A stretch of DNA of 43,944 nucleotides, taken from positions 1 to 43,944 of the forward strand of contig JAWAET010000001.1 in the NCBI GenBank assembly GCA_038891175.1, given 5' to 3'. Position 1 is the first letter of the stretch. Each line of letters begins with the position of its first letter. The translations under genes were made by a program, and so were the position numbers. Source of the DNA: Candidatus Pacearchaeota archaeon (GTDB lineage Archaea > Nanobdellota > Nanobdellia > Pacearchaeales > GW2011-AR1). This document shows, piece by piece, positions 2,868-27,789 of this stretch. A model generated the notes under the pieces. The model ran no database searches. It saw only the letters and a program-made list of their open reading frames with translations, and had not been told where the DNA came from.

Positions 2868-3781
2868 AGTAATAGGCTCTTTTTTTTCCTAAATAATTTG
2901 TAAGGGTTAATTTTAAAAAGAATTATAAGAAGGATAACTAAAAAAAATAAAATTAAAACATAATTTTTAAAAGAAAACTTATTAGAACTTGAGAAAACTC
3001 TTTTTTGAAAATTAGTATTAAAAGAGAGACTGTTATTTATATTCGGCTTGATTGGTATTTCTAATTTTTCAACTCTTCTTTCACCAAGCTCATCAGTATA
3101 ATAAACATCTAAGAGAAGTTTAACTTTCTCATTTTGCATTTTTTTATTTCCTAAAGAGTCGCTTAAAGAAAAAAAATTAAAACTTACAACACTATAGTCT
3201 CCTGTTTGTAAATTTCCTATCATTTGTCCGTCTATAATAATAGGTTTAAATAAAGGTTGATCTGGAACTCTTACTATAACAGAATTTGCGTTGTGCTTGC
3301 CTGTGTTTGCAATTGCAATAACCACATTATTGCCATTTATTTCTTGGATAACTGCATCGAATTTTGTTCTCAAATCCTTAACAGAAACATTAAACTTTTT
3401 TGTTAAAGTAATATTTTTTAAAAAAGAGTAATTTACTTCAATTTCATATTCGCTTGATATGGCGTCGCTGCTTACTCTTAATTTAAAAGGTATTAACCAA
3501 TTTTTTTTATAATTTGGATCCCAAATACTCCCAAAAATTTTTCTTTCGTTCTCTCCTTCCAAAGAAAAGGGAAAAGAAGGATTTATTTTAAAGCTAATCT
3601 CTTTACACTCGCTATTGTCCAAACCTCCGACTTGAAAAAGAAGAGTAACATATTCTCCTGGAACAGCAGGATAAGGGTCTTGGTTTATTAAAGAAACTTG
3701 AGGATCACAATTATTCAAAGCTAAAACAGGTTTTAATAAAAACAGAAAAAATAAGAAGAGCACTTTTTTTGAAACCATCAT
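2864..3781 (-). CDS. Secreted, C-terminally anchored surface protein associated with the MacB-type permease
   Basis: It has a signal-like N-terminus, the conserved block CDPQVSLINQDPYPAVPGEYVTLLF shared with 12699..13532, and a C-terminal TM (YVLILFFLVILLIILF) with a basic tail. Confidence 0.65.
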   Translation of the reverse strand: MMVSKKVLFLFFLFLLKPVLALNNCDPQVSLINQDPYPAVPGEYVTLLFQVGGLDNSECKEISFKINPSFPFSLEGENERKIFGSIWDPNYKKNWLIPFKLRVSSDAISSEYEIEVNYSFLKNITLTKKFNVSVKDLRTKFDAVIQEINGNNVVIAIANTGKHNANSVIVRVPDQPLFKPIIIDGQMIGNLQTGDYSVVSFNFFSLSDSLGNKKMQNEKVKLLLDVYYTDELGERRVEKLEIPIKPNINNSLSFNTNFQKRVFSSSNKFSFKNYVLILFFLVILLIILFKINPYKLFRKKKSLLL

Positions 3782-3833
3782 TATAATATAAGTGTTTTAT
3801 TTTTAAATATAATGGATAAGAAGTCCATTTATC

Positions 3834-4673
3834 TTAAAATTTATTTTTAAAAGAATAAAAGAGTTTTTCAATTTCTTCAATATTTTTCGAGAGAGTTATT
3901 TTTTTCCTTAGCATTTTAGCATTTTTTAAAGATTTAGTAAAGTTCATTGCCTGAAACTTTATTTGAGAAAAAGGTAACTTATACTTTTTAGCAAGAGCTA
4001 AATAATTAAAAAAGTTAAGATTACACTCCTTTCCTAAAAGAAAAGAAAAAATACAAGGTCTTCCGATTGCTTTTCTTCCTATCATTACAAAATCGAAAAT
4101 GTTTAGTAAACTCTTTGCATTTTTTTCATCTACATCACCAGAATAAATTATAGGTATCTTTGAATTTCTCTTTATTTTTATTGCAAATTCTATATCTGCC
4201 CTTCCAGAGTAACCTTGTTCTCTTGTTCTCGGATGAATAATTAAGGCGTTACAATATTTTTCTGCAATTTTTAAAATTTTAAAAGAATTTTCGGACTTTC
4301 TAATTTTAACTGATAAAAATTTCTTAGAATTTTCTCTCATTATTTTTAAGATATTCTCTATTTCCTCTATATCTGTTAAGTAGCTACCAAATTTTAATTT
4401 TTTTGCAGTCGACGAAGAACAACCCAAATTTAAATCCCATCCGCTAACTTGTTTATCAAACTTTTTAATAAACTTAGGAACTCCTAAAGAAGAATTACAG
4501 AATATTTGAAGAATTGGCTTATCATCTAAGAGAAGAGTTTTCAAAGAGAGAGGATTCGTCATTCCAGTGTAAACACCTCCTGCTCCTGCTTTCTTGCAAA
4601 GAATTCTAAAAGCAATATCATTAGGTTCTAACAACGGTGCCAAAATAAAAGGATTAGTGAAAGGGATTTTCAT
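3834..4673 (-). CDS. dus: tRNA-dihydrouridine synthase (Dus) family flavoenzyme
   Basis: The pattern is Dus-like: NPFILAPLLEPNDIAFRILCKKAGAG, LNLGCSSS (catalytic Cys loop), VKIRK, IHPRTREQGYSGRAD and MIGRKAIGRPCIF. Confidence 0.7.
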   Translation of the reverse strand: MKIPFTNPFILAPLLEPNDIAFRILCKKAGAGGVYTGMTNPLSLKTLLLDDKPILQIFCNSSLGVPKFIKKFDKQVSGWDLNLGCSSSTAKKLKFGSYLTDIEEIENILKIMRENSKKFLSVKIRKSENSFKILKIAEKYCNALIIHPRTREQGYSGRADIEFAIKIKRNSKIPIIYSGDVDEKNAKSLLNIFDFVMIGRKAIGRPCIFSFLLGKECNLNFFNYLALAKKYKLPFSQIKFQAMNFTKSLKNAKMLRKKITLSKNIEEIEKLFYSFKNKF

Positions 4674-20066: not shown

Positions 20067-20220
20067 AGCTCGAGTAGCTCAGCTGGATAGAGCACCGCAC
20101 TCCTAAAACTACCTTTCTTAGAAAGAAAGGTTCATTACAATCAGAAGAAATAGTTATAGCGACTTTGTTCGCTTCTTATGGAGAGATGCGGGGGCCGGGG
20201 GTTCAAATCCTCCCTCGAGC
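20067..20220 (+). tRNA. tRNA-Arg (anticodon CCU) interrupted by an intron of about 80 nt at the canonical 37/38 position (about 20105..20184)
   Basis: The 5' exon is GCTCGAGTAGCTCAGCTGGATAGAGCACCGCACTCCTA. The 3' exon is ATGCGGGGGCCGGGGGTTCAAATCCTCCCTCGAGCG. Acceptor GCTCGAG/CTCGAGC and anticodon stem CCGCA/TGCGG pair perfectly. CTCC (positions 32-35) pairs with the intron 3' GGAG, leaving a 3-nt AGA bulge. Confidence 0.8.
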
Positions 20221-20237
20221 GCTTTAGAAAAGATAAA

Positions 20238-22943: not shown

Positions 22944-23243
22944 TTATATCTTTATTCTGTACAAATCTTGTTAAATTAATTATCAACAGTAAAAGAGTAA
23001 TTAGAAAGAAGAAACATTTTTTATAAAGGAGATATCTCTTGAATTATAATAAAGATTAACAAAAAATTTAAAAGAATGTTTAAAGTGAATTTCTTAATTA
23101 TTTAAACTAGTTTTTAATGTGACTAAAAAGAAATCTGTAATTTTTGAGAAAAATAATTTTCTTAAAAACTTACTATACTATCTATCTCTTTCTCTAAAAT
23201 CTTAGATTAAAGATTATTAATAAACAAAAAAGTTGCCTTTTTC

Positions 23244-23274
23244 TAGTAGTTACAAAAAGAAAGATTTAAATATA
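23244..23274 (+). promoter_or_regulatory. Promoter/operator motif TAGTAGTTACAAAAAGAAAGATTTAAATATA, ending 20 nt before the ATG at 23294
   Basis: A near-identical motif with identical spacing lies at 24965..24994, before the ATG at 25014. TTTAAATATA is TATA-like, and the spacing implies a leaderless or very short-leader mRNA. Confidence 0.5.
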
Positions 23275-23293
23275 TGAGAAATATTAAAAAAAT

Positions 23294-23932
23294 ATGGTAA
23301 GAAAACAAAAAAGTATAGAAGAGATTAAAGAAGAAGTGAAGAAATTTTATGAAGATAAAAAAGGAAGTTTAGAAAGTAGTACAAGTATATTAATTATGGA
23401 TACTGGAGCTTTAATAGATATTCAAAAAGAAAATAAAGAAGAATGGTTGGGTAAATTGAAAATTAAAAGGTGTATGGAAGATATTTTAGAATATTTTGAG
23501 AAATACGCCATACCTATAGTAACGCCGGCAACTATGAATGAAGTAGAAATACATTCTTTTGTAAAGATAAATGGACATGAAAAAGAGATATCCTCTTGTA
23601 CTTATGGCTTTTCTAAAAAATGTAGTGTGAATTTTCAAGATTTGTATGATAGATTAGAATCTAAAAAAGACCAAAACCGATATGATGCGTGGTTATTTAC
23701 AAGAAATAACTTGCGTAGTCTTTTGATGAATAAAAGTATGGGAGAAATTTCGATTGTTGATTTAGACATATTAGAAAATGCTTATTTATTCGCAACTACT
23801 AATTTAAAAGATAAGAAAAAAAGTTTAGTTTGTGTTTTAACATCTGATCATTATCATGTAGCTGAAGGTATCAACTTAATTAGAAAAAAGTTTGAATTAG
23901 AAAATTTAGGAGTAGTAGAAACAAGGAAGTAA
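23294..23932 (+). CDS. PIN-domain ribonuclease-like protein
   Basis: Four acidic positions occur in PIN order: ILIMDTGALID, TMNEVEIH, SIVDLDILENA and VCVLTSDHY. At 212 aa it is larger than a minimal VapC. Confidence 0.6.
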   Translation: MVRKQKSIEEIKEEVKKFYEDKKGSLESSTSILIMDTGALIDIQKENKEEWLGKLKIKRCMEDILEYFEKYAIPIVTPATMNEVEIHSFVKINGHEKEISSCTYGFSKKCSVNFQDLYDRLESKKDQNRYDAWLFTRNNLRSLLMNKSMGEISIVDLDILENAYLFATTNLKDKKKSLVCVLTSDHYHVAEGINLIRKKFELENLGVVETRK

Positions 23933-23933
23933 G

Positions 23934-24773
23934 ATGAAATTTATAAAATATCCTAAAATTCCTTATTTGGAAAGCGAAAAAGAACTCGAAGGAAAAGAAG
24001 TTTATTTATTTGAAAAATTAGATGGGAGCAACTGCCAGATAAGAAAAGAAAATTGGAGAGTTTTTGCAGCAAAAAGAAGCGGCGATGTTTTAGAAAAAGA
24101 ATGGGAAAATAAAAAAGAAAAAAAATGGATAGAGAACTTTTATAAATGGGCTATGTCAAATAGCTCTTTGTTAAATCTACCAGAAGGGATTATCTTTTAC
24201 GGAGAGTGGTTACATAAAAAATCCTTCGGAAATGGGGTAATTTATCCAGAAGATTGCTATGATAGATTTTACTTAATAGATTGTATAAAAACAAAAGAAA
24301 ATGAAAATTTTGAGTTTTTACCTTATGAAGAAGGGGAGAAAATTATAAAAGAGAGAAGTATAGAAGAAGTGAGGATTTTACCTTATACAAAGATTTTTTC
24401 TCCTTCTTTAAATGAATTGAAAAAAAAGATTTTCGGAGGCTTAGAAAAACAAATAGCCGAAGGAATTCCAGAAGGGATAGTGATAAAAGATTACTCTGTA
24501 AATCCTCCTTTTATGAGAAAAATTGTTAGCGAACCTTATGAAGAAAAAGATGAAAGAATTAAAGATGAAAGAAAAAAATACATTACCCTATCAAGAATAA
24601 AAAAAGCTTATGAAAAAGCAATTGAAGAAGAAGAGAAAGTCTCTCAACAAAGAATTATAGAAATAATAATTAAAGATATAAAAGAAGAAACAAATATAGA
24701 TGCCGATGTTGAATATGCAAAACAAAGGATATTAAATTTTCTAGATATGATAAATCTTAAAATCCCTCCTTAA
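23934..24773 (+). CDS. ATP-dependent RNA ligase, Rnl2-like nucleotidyltransferase family
   Basis: Motif I is FEKLDGSN (KxDG adenylylation lysine). Motif III is IIFYGEW, IIIa is FYLIDCI, IV is EGIVIKD and V is MRKIVSEP. There is a helical C-terminal domain. The gene starts 1 nt after the PIN stop. Confidence 0.7.
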   Translation: MKFIKYPKIPYLESEKELEGKEVYLFEKLDGSNCQIRKENWRVFAAKRSGDVLEKEWENKKEKKWIENFYKWAMSNSSLLNLPEGIIFYGEWLHKKSFGNGVIYPEDCYDRFYLIDCIKTKENENFEFLPYEEGEKIIKERSIEEVRILPYTKIFSPSLNELKKKIFGGLEKQIAEGIPEGIVIKDYSVNPPFMRKIVSEPYEEKDERIKDERKKYITLSRIKKAYEKAIEEEEKVSQQRIIEIIIKDIKEETNIDADVEYAKQRILNFLDMINLKIPP

Positions 24774-24964
24774 CTTACAAAAGGGTTTCTCTTAAAAATT
24801 TCATAAACTTAAATAGAATCTGCTTCTAAAATTTAGTTTCCCTAACTAATCTTTATTTGTTAAAATTAATCATTTATGAGAAAAAAGTAATTTGCGAAAG
24901 AGTTTAGATATTATAAATAAGTTTATATCAAATAAAAATAAATTCCTTTATAAATGTTATTGTT

Positions 24965-24994
24965 TAGTAGTAACAAAAGAAAGGTTTAAAAATA
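24965..24994 (+). promoter_or_regulatory. Second copy of the promoter/operator motif: TAGTAGTAACAAAAGAAAGGTTTAAAAATA
   Basis: Same order and the same 20-nt distance to the ATG at 25014 as the copy at 23244..23274. Confidence 0.5.
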
Positions 24995-25013
24995 GAGAGA
25001 CATAAGAGAAGAT

Positions 25014-25829
25014 ATGGAAAAGATAAAATATCGTGCTAAAACGATAGATGATTATTTTATTGTTGAAGGGCTTTGCGGAATAGCTCAATTAGAAAAAGAA
25101 AGTAAAAGCAAAGAAAGTTGGTTTTTGGTTGGAGGAATTGCTGTTCAAAGCTATTTACCAAGCTCTTGTAGGAGGCCTACTTCTGATATAGATTTAGCAT
25201 TATTAGTTCCATTAAATTATGAAAGTTTTAAAGAGTATTCAAAACCTGTAAAAGAGTATCTCCAAGATAAGGGTTTTCAAGTGGAAGAAAAAAAAGGGCA
25301 TAATACTTTTATTTTAAAATATAAAAAAGATGAGGAAACAGGAGTAATAGAATTCGCAAGAAGAAATAAACAGAATCTTAAGAGAATAATCAAAAGATTA
25401 GAAGAAGAAATGAAAAACACGAGATTAAAAGTTATAGAAGGAAAAAGAGAGTTCTATAGAGTCTCTAGTCCTGAGGATATTATCTCGCCTAAAATGGTGA
25501 GAAGTATAATGATTTTAAAAGAATTTCCCGAGTTGAAAGAAGAATATCTCACTAAGAAAATTTATCCTCTTACTGAAAAAAAGATAGAAGAGAGTCTTAA
25601 TGAAATAGAAAAAATAAAAGAAGAAGCAAGATTATCGGAAGGAAATTTAGAAATAGCATGTCGGTTAAGATTTGTTTCGGATATATACGACATAAAAGTT
25701 CTTTCTGAACTCACAGGTTTTAATGAAGACTATCTAAAAGAGTCTCTTTATAGATGGAGCAAAAATAGAGAAGATTCGGAAGAGAAAAATATTCTAATGA
25801 AAAGCCTCCTTCCTTTTATAAAAATTTGA
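25014..25829 (+). CDS. DUF1814/AbiEii-MenT-like nucleotidyltransferase
   Basis: WFLVGGIAVQSYLPSSCRRPTSDIDLALLVP matches the GG...R.[ST].D[IL]D NTase signature near the N-terminus. The length of about 270 aa is typical. Confidence 0.6.
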   Translation: MEKIKYRAKTIDDYFIVEGLCGIAQLEKESKSKESWFLVGGIAVQSYLPSSCRRPTSDIDLALLVPLNYESFKEYSKPVKEYLQDKGFQVEEKKGHNTFILKYKKDEETGVIEFARRNKQNLKRIIKRLEEEMKNTRLKVIEGKREFYRVSSPEDIISPKMVRSIMILKEFPELKEEYLTKKIYPLTEKKIEESLNEIEKIKEEARLSEGNLEIACRLRFVSDIYDIKVLSELTGFNEDYLKESLYRWSKNREDSEEKNILMKSLLPFIKI

Positions 25830-26345
25830 AGTCTTTTCTTTTAACTTTCTTTGAACAGCATAAAAAATCTCGGGGGAAATCAAAGGTTTATGTTCTCCTT
25901 TAAAAATTCTTCCATCGAATTTTATTTCGCCTAAGTAAGTACGATTAGTTAAAATTTTTTTTAAACCGTTTATCGAAAGAGAATATTTTTTTGCTAAAGA
26001 ATTTAAAGAAATGTCAGTTTCTAGAAACTCTTTAAAAATAGAATGGACTTTATGCGAGTCTTGGTTTTCAACTAATTTCCCATTTAATAAATCATATCCT
26101 AATGGAGCTCTAGACATTACTTTTCCTTCTTCTGCTTTTTTTTCCATTCCTTCTTTCTGTTTTATACCGAACTTTTGTCCATATTTTCTAAAAGTTTCTA
26201 ATAATTTCCAATCGACTTTCTCTTCTATATATTTTAAAAAATCTTCTTTGGCAGAAGGAGAAAAAAAAGCACAAAGAGAACAAAGAGGAACATTGTCAAC
26301 TATAATCTCCTTTTCATCTATGTATCCGCATTTATAACAAACCAT
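25794..26345 (-). CDS. Zinc-ribbon plus serine-recombinase 'Recombinase' DNA-binding domain protein, lacking the resolvase catalytic domain
   Basis: N-terminal CYKCG...CSLC. Then EEGKVMSRAPLGYDLLNGKLVENQDSHKVHSIFKEF...SLNSLAKKY...LKKILTNRTYLGEIKF...GEHKPLISPEIF, colinear with the recombinase domain of large serine recombinases. No S-R catalytic N-domain is present. Confidence 0.55.
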   Translation of the reverse strand: MVCYKCGYIDEKEIIVDNVPLCSLCAFFSPSAKEDFLKYIEEKVDWKLLETFRKYGQKFGIKQKEGMEKKAEEGKVMSRAPLGYDLLNGKLVENQDSHKVHSIFKEFLETDISLNSLAKKYSLSINGLKKILTNRTYLGEIKFDGRIFKGEHKPLISPEIFYAVQRKLKEKTSNFYKRKEAFH

Positions 26346-26393: not shown

Positions 26394-26966
26394 ATGCTTT
26401 ATAAAAAACTTTATTGTGGTGCAGATGATTCCAATCATGCCGGCGATTCAAAAGGAGAGTTTATAGTCGTAACTTTTTCATATTTAAAAGAAGATGCCAT
26501 TCCTAGATATTTTAAAAACAAAAGAGATTACTCGGGCACAAAAGAGTGGCTAAAAAATCCTTTAAGAGATTATAGGTTTACTATCCTCTTAAGAGAAAGA
26601 TATAGGCATTCGAGAAATAATCTTATAGATATTGCACCTCTGCTGATAAAAGAATATCTTTCTAAAAAAGAGAGATTGGAAGGAATAAGTTTATATTTAG
26701 ATGGAGAAATAACTAATTTTTATATTGAAAAAATAAGAGAGATAATGAAAAAAATGTTTTTGGTTAATAAAGCATATGTAAAAGGTTTTAGTAAAAAAAC
26801 TCTTGGTGAATTTCACAAAAGATATTTCTGTCCAGAACTTGTTTATAGAGCAGACGTGCTTGCAAATGAACTTTACTCTTATAACGGACCTATAAAAGAG
26901 ATATTCTCTCATGAAAAATTAATACCTCTTGAAAGATTAGTAGAGAAAATAGACACTTCTAATTAA
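26394..26966 (+). CDS. Hypothetical protein with a weak RNase H-fold-like signature (DUF3800/RNase HII-like)
   Basis: N-terminal LYCGADDSNHAGDSKGEFIVV resembles the G-x-D-E-[AS]-G first strand, and the C-terminal YRADVLANELY resembles the distal acidic motif. This is pattern-level only. Confidence 0.3.
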   Translation: MLYKKLYCGADDSNHAGDSKGEFIVVTFSYLKEDAIPRYFKNKRDYSGTKEWLKNPLRDYRFTILLRERYRHSRNNLIDIAPLLIKEYLSKKERLEGISLYLDGEITNFYIEKIREIMKKMFLVNKAYVKGFSKKTLGEFHKRYFCPELVYRADVLANELYSYNGPIKEIFSHEKLIPLERLVEKIDTSN

Positions 26967-27789
26967 GAGAATCAAAAGGACTCTTTATCTTTTTGATTTC
27001 TTCGTTTGAGATATGGGTGTAAATTTGAGTTGTGGAAAGATTAGAATGACCTAAAAGCTCTTGGATTTTTCTTATATCCACTCCGGACTCTAAAAGGTGA
27101 GTCGCGAAAGAGTGACGTAGTGTATGAGGATGAACTTCTTTATTTATTCCTGCTTTTTTAGCTGCTCTTTGAACTATCTTCTGTACAGCTCTCGAAGAGA
27201 TTTTTTTATTATTTTTCCCAAAAAGATATTTTTCTCCTTCTTTTTTCTTTTCTTCTACGTATTCTTTTAATTTAAGAAGAAGAGATTGCGGAATATTAAA
27301 TATTCTGTCCTTTCTTCCTTTTCCTTGCCTAACATAACCAATTTTTTCTTCAAAATTTAAGTCGTTGACTTCAAGGTTTATTAATTCTGAAACTCTTAAA
27401 CCACAAGCATAAAGAAGAGAAACCATAAGATTAGATTTTTTATTATTTATAACATTAAGTAAACGAGAAACCTCTTCTTTTGATAAAACGGAAGGAAGTT
27501 TTTTTTCTTTTTTTGGTCTTCTTATATTTTCAGTGATATCTTTCTTTAAAATTAAAGAAAAAGCATAACGTAAAGAAGAAAGAAAAACAATGATAGAACT
27601 TGCAGAACTGTTGGCCATTTTTTCAGCTAAAAAAAGTTTTACATCATCTTCATTGATTTCCTCAGGCGATTTGTCGATAAAATCTAAAAATTTTTTAACA
27701 TTAGAAAGATAATTTTTTGAAGTATTCTCTGAGCTTTTAGAAATTTTTAGTTCTACTTCTAGTTTTTTAAGAAAGTCTTCTTTTTTCAT
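26959..27789 (-). CDS. xerA: Tyrosine recombinase XerA/XerCD family
   Basis: GLRVSEL (Arg I), GKGRKDR, HPHTLRHSFATHLL (His-x-x-Arg), LLGHSNLSTTQIYTH (His and the Tyr nucleophile), and an N-terminal SAM-like core-binding domain. Confidence 0.9.
   Translation of the reverse strand: MKKEDFLKKLEVELKISKSSENTSKNYLSNVKKFLDFIDKSPEEINEDDVKLFLAEKMANSSASSIIVFLSSLRYAFSLILKKDITENIRRPKKEKKLPSVLSKEEVSRLLNVINNKKSNLMVSLLYACGLRVSELINLEVNDLNFEEKIGYVRQGKGRKDRIFNIPQSLLLKLKEYVEEKKKEGEKYLFGKNNKKISSRAVQKIVQRAAKKAGINKEVHPHTLRHSFATHLLESGVDIRKIQELLGHSNLSTTQIYTHISNEEIKKIKSPFDSLN
27308..27384. repeat. 77-bp direct repeat, copy A (inside xerA, codons ~136-160)
   Basis: It matches 29374..29450 at 76 of 77 positions (single T/C difference), and the boundaries are sharp. 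Confidence 0.85.

Follow-up and report, generated by a model that had tools for sequence, protein, structure and literature searches.

Introduction

HARP, the protein-only RNase P of about 23 kDa from Aquifex and many Euryarchaeota, is built from a PIN_5 nuclease domain and an inserted, protruding helical (spike) domain; residues D7/T8/S9, D138/S139/E141/D142 and D160 make up its active site, and its cleavage leaves a 5'-phosphate (PMC12217051). The family model TIGR03875 (equivalent to COG1458 and to PIN_5, PF08745) bears the name 'RNA ligase partner protein', and PIN_5 proteins co-occur with the TIGR01209 ligase, a tRNA methyltransferase and a tRNA synthetase (Matelska 2017). Of genomes encoding HARP, 89% carry the ligase Rnl3, and the two genes co-localise in one third of archaeal cases and in 80% of bacterial ones, most often in divergent orientation and in tandem only 10 times (Seshadri & Gopalan 2025, mBio). 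Three haloarchaeal loci that we inspected show this divergent orientation. HARP acts as an oligomer, from tetramer to dodecamer, and is known for cleaving the 5' leader of pre-tRNA, and Rnl3 is a homodimer that circularises ssRNA. Ligases of the Rnl3 and Rnl2 types join a 3'-OH to a 5'-PO4 end (PMC4797309). HARP has been reported to be absent from all DPANN archaea (Daniels et al. 2019). Here we describe two adjacent genes, open reading frames (ORF) A and B, predicted to encode a PIN-like nuclease and an RNA ligase. They lie on a 43,944-nt stretch (hereafter the window) from a Candidatus Pacearchaeota (DPANN) metagenome-assembled genome; this contig has a G+C content of about 28%.

The link between HARP and its ligase was put forward in 2025 as no more than a hypothesis. 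Proposed roles for HARP-Rnl3 include joint maturation and circularisation of C/D-box RNAs, a toxin-antitoxin (TA) function and 5'-adenylylation, and several HARPs do not cleave pre-tRNA (Seshadri & Gopalan 2025). An initial annotation of the window knew of no described PIN-plus-ligase system. The partnership is in fact already known as HARP-Rnl3; it has been published (Matelska 2017; Seshadri & Gopalan 2025), and TIGR03875 is named for it. What is new is a divergent, tandem version in DPANN, and our literature search found no paper describing a DPANN version of the HARP-ligase pair. We consider it reasonably probable that the products of ORF-A and ORF-B make up a constitutive RNA-processing module of two enzymes in DPANN archaea (Pacearchaeota and Woesearchaeota). 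It would be a highly divergent and compact counterpart of the HARP-Rnl3 pair of Euryarchaeota and Aquificota, with both genes joined in one operon.

ORF-A belongs to an unannotated family of predicted PIN-like nucleases

ORF-A (23294-23932, forward strand; 212 amino acids (aa)) carries the database annotation QW273_00190 'hypothetical protein'. Single-sequence searches of Pfam, NCBIfam, PADLOC, PHROGs and PDB sequences gave no match, and a word-indexed search found one relative only, 32% identical. An exhaustive HMMER search seeded by ORF-A and that relative recovered 66 representative clusters, nearly all full-length and 200-235 aa long. These searches make ORF-A the founding member of an unannotated DPANN family. 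The sole invariant columns in an alignment of 60 family sequences are D36, E83, D156, D185 and H188, with T37, I41, D42, H87, N93, E98, S153 and R211 conserved in at least 90%. The four acidic residues fall in the motifs that the initial annotation had picked out as those of a PIN nuclease, and their invariance across 60 sequences places these motifs far beyond chance. The first catalytic motif (ILIMDTGALID) contributes D36-T37 at the end of strand β1 (23399-23404), and the second PIN acidic residue is E83 (MNEVE; 23540-23542). S153-x-x-D156 (DLDILENA; 23750-23761) constitutes the third motif and D185 with H188 (LTSDHYH; 23846-23857) the fourth, all on the forward strand.

Pfam matches of individual family members to the PIN clan are weak. 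PIN_4 is matched by 9 of the 60 sequences (best E-value 7.8e-5), and others match PIN_12, PIN_8, PIN_2, PIN_6, PIN or DUF4411, at E-values of 7.8e-5 to 0.1; the family consensus reaches PIN_4 at E=0.011, with 16.5 bits against a cutoff of 21.9. Classification of ORF-A as a PIN-like metallonuclease was borne out only after a family profile had been built, as ORF-A alone has no PIN match. Its AlphaFold model is confident (pLDDT 93.4, pTM 0.90), with the predicted topology β1(31-35)-α-α-β2(73-75)-α(78-88)-β-hairpin-α(101-119)-α(125-147)-α(154-168)-β(178-183)-α-β(205-209). This corresponds to a PIN-like α/β/α core with an inserted two-helix hairpin, and the acidic residues are located at strand ends and helix starts. 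The hairpin (residues 101-147; 23594-23734, forward strand), modeled as helices 101-119 and 125-147, occupies the position of the protruding/spike domain of HARP, of which it may be the equivalent. Foldseek comparison of the model with PDB and BFVD gave no significant structural neighbour; among the leading matches, HARP was the sole nuclease (7e8k_D, rank 4, E=0.17). Collectively, the family alignment and model identify ORF-A as a predicted PIN-fold metallonuclease with HARP architecture.

ORF-A shows remote similarity to HARP

Curated models of HARP do not recognize the new family. PF08745 (PIN_5), TIGR03875 and PRK04358 gave no match to ORF-A at E<=1 and none to the 60 members at E<=0.1, and the family profile retrieved no HARP chain from PDB sequences at E<=10. 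Because the same models match genuine HARPs at 1e-70 to 1e-121 in positive controls and ORF-A not at all, these profiles place ORF-A outside PIN_5/TIGR03875 as now defined.

Profile-profile comparison gave a different picture depending on the HARP sequences used. The inputs for the HARP profile were PDB entries 7f3e, 8ssf and 7og5 and five haloarchaeal HARPs (named 'RNA ligase partner protein' by PGAP). Alignment by hhalign of the ORF-A family with three bacterial HARPs was out of register (Prob 1%, P=0.049, score 18.1), and 4 of 200 shuffles (12.5±2.3) reached the real score. With the eight-sequence HARP profile, the score rose to 28.7 (P=0.0012), while the HH-suite probability was just 19%, which is under usual confidence. 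Judged against shuffles the score is significant, as none of 300 reached 28.7 (12.6±2.3, maximum 22.1; z ~7, with column shuffling being a liberal null), and the reversed profile scored 10.8. The eight-sequence alignment is collinear throughout the catalytic positions, pairing D36 with D7, T37 with T8, E83 with the conserved E51, S153 with S139, D156 with D142, A163 with A149 and D185 with D160. The inserted helices of ORF-A also align collinearly with the PrH region of HARP. The ORF-A position matching HARP E141 is not conserved. ORF-A is probably a remote homolog of HARP, as judged from these alignments.

ORF-B is predicted to be a compact ATP-dependent RNA ligase

ORF-B (23934-24773, forward strand; 279 aa) matches PF09414 at 1.8e-16 and phrog_548 'RNA ligase' at 3.4e-21. 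Its motifs are invariant among relatives and comprise I (K28, D30, G31 and N33; EKLDGSN), Ia (R48/S49), III (G90-E91-W92; FYGEW), IIIa (Y113/D116), IV (E180-G-x-V-x-K185; EGIVIKD) and V (K196). K28 of motif I is the predicted AMP-accepting lysine (24015-24017), and motif IV reads E180-G-I-V-I-K185 (24471-24488), both on the forward strand and identified from the family alignment. The Asn of motif I, N33 in ORF-B, is a signature common to Rnl2 and Rnl3 only (PMC4797309).

The AlphaFold model of ORF-B (pLDDT 82), which was built on a shallower alignment without locus-derived orthologs, predicts a nucleotidyltransferase (NTase) core followed by three helices (219-232, 238-253 and 259-272). These lie in a C-terminal helical module (residues 212-272; 24567-24749, forward strand) that aligns to part of the post-NTase region of Rnl3 and to the C-domain of T4 Rnl2, which in the Rnl2 family is all-helical and required for sealing nicks. 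The fold search that returned no significant neighbour for ORF-A placed ORF-B among Rnl2 and Rnl3 folds. Its top Foldseek match was full-length T4 Rnl2 (2hvq; E=1.4e-9, 332 aligned columns, TM ~0.49), with Rnl3 (8uce, 2vug, 3qwu and 5d1o; 1e-8), REL1, Trl1 and Rnl5 close behind, and the Foldseek probability was 1.0 for T4 Rnl2, Rnl3, REL1 and Trl1. The initial annotation of ORF-B as an Rnl2-like ATP-dependent RNA ligase with a full motif set and a helical C-domain thus largely holds. By family profile the order differs, with Pab1020/Rnl3 first (4.8e-12), followed by Rnl5 (2.4e-11) and T4 Rnl2 (3.6e-7), the match to Pab1020 covering residues 88-316 of 389 only. Neither TIGR01209 nor PF18330 (Lig_C, the dimerisation and C-terminal region of Rnl3) matched ORF-B, whereas a control haloarchaeal Rnl3 matched them at 1.5e-97 and 1.4e-37, respectively. 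The position of K28 leaves about 20 residues ahead of the NTase domain, with no room for the N-terminal domain of Rnl3. Profiles and model place ORF-B as a compact PF09414 ATP-dependent RNA ligase between Rnl2 and Rnl3.

Relatives of ORF-B also occur without a PIN partner. In the related locus L005 (5001-5855; also L006 and L007), a BREX locus, a 284-aa ligase 34% identical to ORF-B is encoded between an 809-aa unknown protein, which follows BrxC, and PglX; this ligase is possibly an RNA-ligase accessory of BREX. A more distant clade (293-299 aa, ~29% identical) is represented in L024 at 3501-4400, where small ORFs and a DnaB_2-domain gene form a phage-like region around it and RtcB is encoded a few kb downstream. 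The ligase clade is versatile, with PIN-less relatives in conflict contexts.

One alternative is that the likeness to HARP-Rnl3 is convergent: ORF-A would be a PIN_4-like nuclease of the VapC group with no specific relationship to HARP that independently recruited a PF09414 ligase, and the acidic quartet and helical insert would be generic to PIN proteins or convergent. The absence of PIN_5 from the Pfam matches of family members, which include PIN_4 and PIN_12, agrees with this proposal, as do the missing Rnl3 N-terminal domain and Lig_C of ORF-B, its best fold match to T4 Rnl2 rather than Rnl3, and the low HH-suite probability. Convergence would leave unaccounted for a profile-profile score far above shuffles and a single collinear alignment in which HARP catalytic residues, including the HARP-specific S139, pair with conserved positions. 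It also sits poorly with a hairpin at the PrH position, with PIN partners that share a length of ~190-230 aa and the same layout, and with Pab1020 as the solved sequence nearest to ORF-B. We consider convergence unlikely.

The two genes are arranged as a predicted operon

The initial annotation placed the two ORFs 1 nt apart and proposed that they are translationally coupled, and both points are supported by the ORF calls and sequence. A single base (g, 23933) lies between the TAA stop of ORF-A (23930-23932) and the ATG of ORF-B (23934). The last codons of ORF-A contain a Shine-Dalgarno-like AGGAAG (23924-23929, forward strand) that is separated from the ligase start codon by 4 nt. This site and the 1-nt gap between the genes suggest that translation of ORF-B is coupled to that of ORF-A. 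Upstream, about 22 nt separate the ORF-A start codon from the end of a putative promoter, GAAAGATTTAAATA (23259-23272, forward strand), that resembles a B recognition element (BRE) and TATA box. In 10 of the 12 loci that carry the pair, a BRE/TATA block (…GTAGTTAcAAAa.aGAAAGrTTTAAATA) ends at this distance from the start codon of the PIN-like gene, and none was found ahead of the ligase gene in the 12 loci. The motif is enriched in the window, with 12 matches versus 3.45 expected, and represents the generic promoter form of this genome. Given a promoter about 22 nt before ORF-A and none before the ligase gene, the pair would be expressed as a single leaderless bicistronic mRNA.

An additional block, (A)GTAGTTA(C/A)AAA, precedes the TATA box by about 15 nt in 10 of the 12 loci and is kept across loci of differing context; in the window, this block and the promoter lie within 23241-23272. 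A similar block precedes the next gene of the window (about 24960-24992), and the block may be a clade-wide extended promoter element.

Long spacers flank the pair, 350 nt upstream (22944-23293) and 240 nt downstream (24774-25013). The initial annotation had placed the pair in an accessory stretch flanked by these spacers. The spacers exist, but the location is core, as described below. A search of the spacers for an Rfam match, a convincing terminator and a pseudogene or gene remnant found none. Because spacers in related loci are short or different, we did not retain a special function for the long ones.

The pair is conserved in tandem in core gene clusters

A narrow-pattern search for related loci yielded 2 loci each in the genome and metagenome collections, and a homolog search with the family profile found 7 proteins only. 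In 12 of 12 distinct loci, which comprise every family member with a retrievable context and include those of the three weakest members, the PIN-like gene is directly followed by a PF09414 ligase gene on the same strand, so the adjacency is not unique to the window genome. Spacing between the genes ranges from -38 to +14 nt; five junctions are ATGA overlaps, one is TAATG, two have a 1-nt gap, two have a larger overlap and two have a gap of 11 to 14 nt.

The pair resides in two contexts. In the window and in loci L001, L010 and L020, which represent four lineages, it follows genes for S13-S4-S11-rpoD-L18e-L13-S9 and precedes a convergent gene encoding a Zn-ribbon/Recombinase-domain protein; in the window, L18e, L13 and S9 are upstream of the pair, with rpoD and other genes farther upstream. 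In L014, L016, L018, L021, L022 and L023, the order is gatD-(DUF1003)-pair-gatE-aspS or pth2-pair. The distance from the ligase gene to gatE is about 30 nt in this second context, which suggests a PIN-ligase-gatE(-aspS) operon in several DPANN lineages (L014, L016, L018, L021 and L022). In L014, the tRNA-splicing endonuclease gene (endA) lies about 4 kb upstream of the pair. Orthologs of the pair are just 22-40% identical, and synteny is nonetheless kept. Synteny at this degree of divergence points to vertical, housekeeping-type inheritance and indicates that the pair is a core function of reduced genomes rather than a mobile TA or defence cassette.

Two candidates were rejected. P0055, a 485-aa match with 7 stretches, is a repeat-misassembled kinase and no fusion. 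A tRNA-Leu gene near the pair reflects mere synteny of the ribosomal-protein operon.

Core inheritance bears on a second alternative, in which the PIN RNase is conditionally lethal and the ligase repairs its damage or neutralises it, making the pair a toxin with an enzymatic antitoxin or an abortive-infection or anti-ribotoxin module. VapC toxins make up about one fifth of PIN proteins, a TA role has been raised for HARP-Rnl3 (Seshadri & Gopalan 2025), and a conflict role has been suggested for PIN_3 proteins paired with an ATP-grasp ligase (Matelska 2017). The PIN-less ligase relatives in the BREX locus and the phage-like RtcB region also fit such a role, as does the presence downstream in the window of AbiEii-like and recombinase-type genes. 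Against this, neither ORF-A nor ORF-B matches PADLOC, the supposed toxin gene comes first, no small DNA-binding antitoxin is present, and the pair remains syntenic with ribosomal-protein or gatD/gatE/aspS genes at the ortholog identities given above. The AbiEii-like nucleotidyltransferase gene (25014-25829, forward strand) is itself weakly assigned (PADLOC 1.1e-5; Pfam 0.0012, below cutoff) and has its own exact consensus promoter (24979-24992). It is found between the ligase and Zn-ribbon genes only in the window genome, being absent from L001, L010, L011 and L020, and is a window-specific insertion. In addition, a Thermococcus Rnl3 knockout is not toxic (Seshadri & Gopalan 2025). The initial annotation had offered toxin-antitoxin, abortive-infection or anti-ribotoxin, and dedicated RNA-processing functions. 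The last is now best supported, and the core, vertically kept position of the pair makes the TA and abortive-infection options the least likely of the three; overall, we rate them as quite improbable.

tRNA and 5S rRNA genes of the window appear near-leaderless

All six tRNA genes of the window (9027, 17499, 19732 and 20068 on the forward strand; 19632 and 35348 on the reverse strand) and the 5S rRNA gene (13701, reverse strand) are preceded by a BRE/TATA-like box (AAAgTTTTTAwA), with about 23-26 nt between the end of the box and the mature 5' end of the RNA. The spacing is the same as that of leaderless mRNAs of this genome and suggests that tRNA transcription is near-leaderless, as in Nanoarchaeum equitans. 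N. equitans lives without RNase P. No RNase P RNA was found in the 44-kb window, a result that is uninformative for the whole genome. The tRNA gene at 20068-20221 (forward strand) spans 154 nt by Rfam, was missed by ARAGORN and must hold an intron of about 80 nt.

These genes speak to a third alternative, that these DPANN archaea use ORF-A as their principal, protein-only RNase P and that the ligase is merely co-expressed and has an unrelated role. Remote HARP similarity, tRNA-related neighbours (gatD/gatE, aspS, pth2 and endA) and, for what the window can tell, the missing RNase P RNA would be in keeping with it. In opposition, six of six window tRNA genes and the 5S rRNA gene have boxes that fit leaderless or near-leaderless transcripts, and adjacency in 100% of loci, often with overlapping genes, favours a function shared with the ligase. 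Moreover, proteins of the ribonucleoprotein RNase P are encoded in all archaeal genomes surveyed (Daniels et al. 2019), and several HARPs leave pre-tRNA uncut (Seshadri & Gopalan 2025). We judge this alternative highly improbable. A DNA (Okazaki/flap) processing pair was set aside, as the ligase has no OB domain and groups with RNA-ligase clades and the neighbourhood is one of tRNA and translation genes.

A proposed cut-and-ligate RNA-processing module

In the two-enzyme RNA-processing module that we favour, one leaderless transcript would arise from the BRE/TATA box at 23259-23272, and the ligase would be translated by coupling to ORF-A. ORF-A would act as a PIN-fold two-metal endoribonuclease, with D36/E83/S153/D156/D185 as its predicted active site and with a helical hairpin whose counterpart in HARP mediates dimerisation and recognition of the substrate (the tRNA elbow). 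By homology, it would cut structured stable RNA, most likely tRNA-related, to give 5'-phosphate and 3'-OH ends. ORF-B, following the chemistry of its family, would adenylylate itself on K28, transfer AMP to the 5'-phosphate and seal this end to a 3'-OH, circularising or rejoining the RNA. HARP leaves a 5'-phosphate and ligases of this type need 3'-OH/5'-PO4 ends, so by analogy the end chemistry of the pair would be compatible, as the initial annotation had anticipated. Fold and family assignments, invariant catalytic residues, constant adjacency and core-genome context come from the data, while the RNA that is cut, the order in which the enzymes act and any complex between the proteins are inferred. 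Obligate tandem pairing in a second lineage is strong comparative evidence that both enzymes share one substrate.

Several observations weigh against this module as a counterpart of HARP-Rnl3. Curated HARP and Rnl3 models miss ORF-A and ORF-B yet match genuine members strongly, and matches of family members to Pfam lean to PIN_4, not PIN_5. The ORF-A model has no significant structural neighbour by Foldseek, and the profile-profile link to HARP has the low HH-suite probability and liberal null noted above. HARP-Rnl3 knockouts in model archaea are without phenotype (Seshadri & Gopalan 2025). The layout of the window tRNA and 5S genes means that 5'-leader removal may be unneeded here, and the taxonomic census is small, at the level of loci and not full genomes.

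A stronger version of the proposal holds that the two DPANN enzymes are physically coupled in a machine that matures RNA by cutting and ligating it, and that they share an ancestor with HARP-Rnl3. We regard this version as doubtful. If true, the ancestral and primary task of HARP-type nucleases would be generation of a 5'-phosphate end for immediate ligation rather than removal of 5' leaders. The apparently near-leaderless tRNAs of this genome likewise point away from 5'-leader removal as the shared function. Products would be circularised or rejoined tRNA-related or other stable RNAs, made by a metal- and ATP-dependent route parallel to EndA/RtcB. Irrespective of this version, a second and very divergent lineage keeps the nuclease-ligase pairing, in tandem and in core clusters of minimal genomes. 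The pair extends HARP-like enzymes to DPANN, and its small proteins (212 and 279 aa) suit tests of complex formation and substrate.

Genes downstream of the pair

The gene convergent to the ligase gene in the first context (25794-26345, reverse strand) encodes a protein that combines a Zn-ribbon (CxxC...CxxC) with PF07508, the DNA-binding 'Recombinase' domain, alone and lacks the catalytic domain of resolvases. Counterparts in L010 (5442-5978), L011 (1646-2170), L001 (7457-7981) and L020 (5472-5993) are 58-67% identical, which is far better conservation than that of the PIN-ligase pair, and the gene looks like a lineage core gene. It is followed by a gene for a conserved 190-aa protein (26394-26966, forward strand) with an N-terminal G-x-D-D-S-N-H-A-G-D motif, also present in L011 (2251-2820) and L020 (6969-7553), that gave no match in Pfam, NCBIfam, PADLOC or PDB sequences. 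An XerC/D-type tyrosine recombinase gene (26959-27789, reverse strand; PF00589 1.7e-50) has the same neighbourhood in L020 (6031-6861) and is probably a chromosomal Xer recombinase, not a marker of a mobile element. A TrkA-domain gene is also among the genes downstream of the pair.

Comparison with known systems

HARP-Rnl3 is the closest described system. Both pairs consist of a PIN-type metallonuclease of ~190-230 aa with a two-helix insert that is genomically linked to a PF09414 ligase. D36/E83/S153/D156/D185 of ORF-A align to D7/E51/S139/D142/D160 of HARP, the solved sequence nearest to ORF-B is the Rnl3 protein Pab1020, and the association with tRNA-related genes resembles that described for PIN_5 (Matelska 2017). 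The differences are nonetheless considerable. PIN_5, TIGR03875, TIGR01209 and Lig_C do not match the DPANN pair. ORF-B is about 100 aa shorter than Rnl3 and has its predicted AMP-accepting lysine at K28 versus about K95; missing are the N-terminal domain and the greater part of the C-terminal region. The ORF-A family has an extra N-terminal helix and the invariant H188. The genes of HARP-Rnl3 are typically divergent, whereas those of the DPANN pair are always in tandem, mostly overlapping and in core translation context, and the DPANN hosts come from samples that are not obviously from extreme environments.

Other systems share fewer features. ORF-B resembles T4 Rnl2 in having the NTase domain at the N terminus, its lysine near residue 30, a K-x-D-G-x-N motif I and a helical C-module. 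It differs in a sequence profile nearer to Rnl3 and Rnl5, a shorter C-module of about 65 aa and three helices, and a cellular context in an operon with a nuclease gene rather than a phage origin. In VapBC systems, too, two tightly linked genes form an operon and one of them encodes a PIN-fold nuclease with a D-E-D-D site; unlike these, the DPANN pair has a 279-aa enzyme in place of a small DNA-binding antitoxin, the nuclease gene first, a 47-residue helical insert in ORF-A, a core and syntenic location and no PADLOC match. Finally, Pnkp/Hen1 and Pnkp1-Rnl-Hen1 (Rnl4) systems similarly encode an ATP-dependent RNA ligase with partners that act on broken RNA. These systems heal the 2',3'-cyclic-phosphate/5'-OH ends left by ribotoxins by means of kinase, phosphatase and Hen1 methyltransferase activities, whereas the DPANN pair is without end-healing domains and the partner of its ligase is itself a predicted nuclease.

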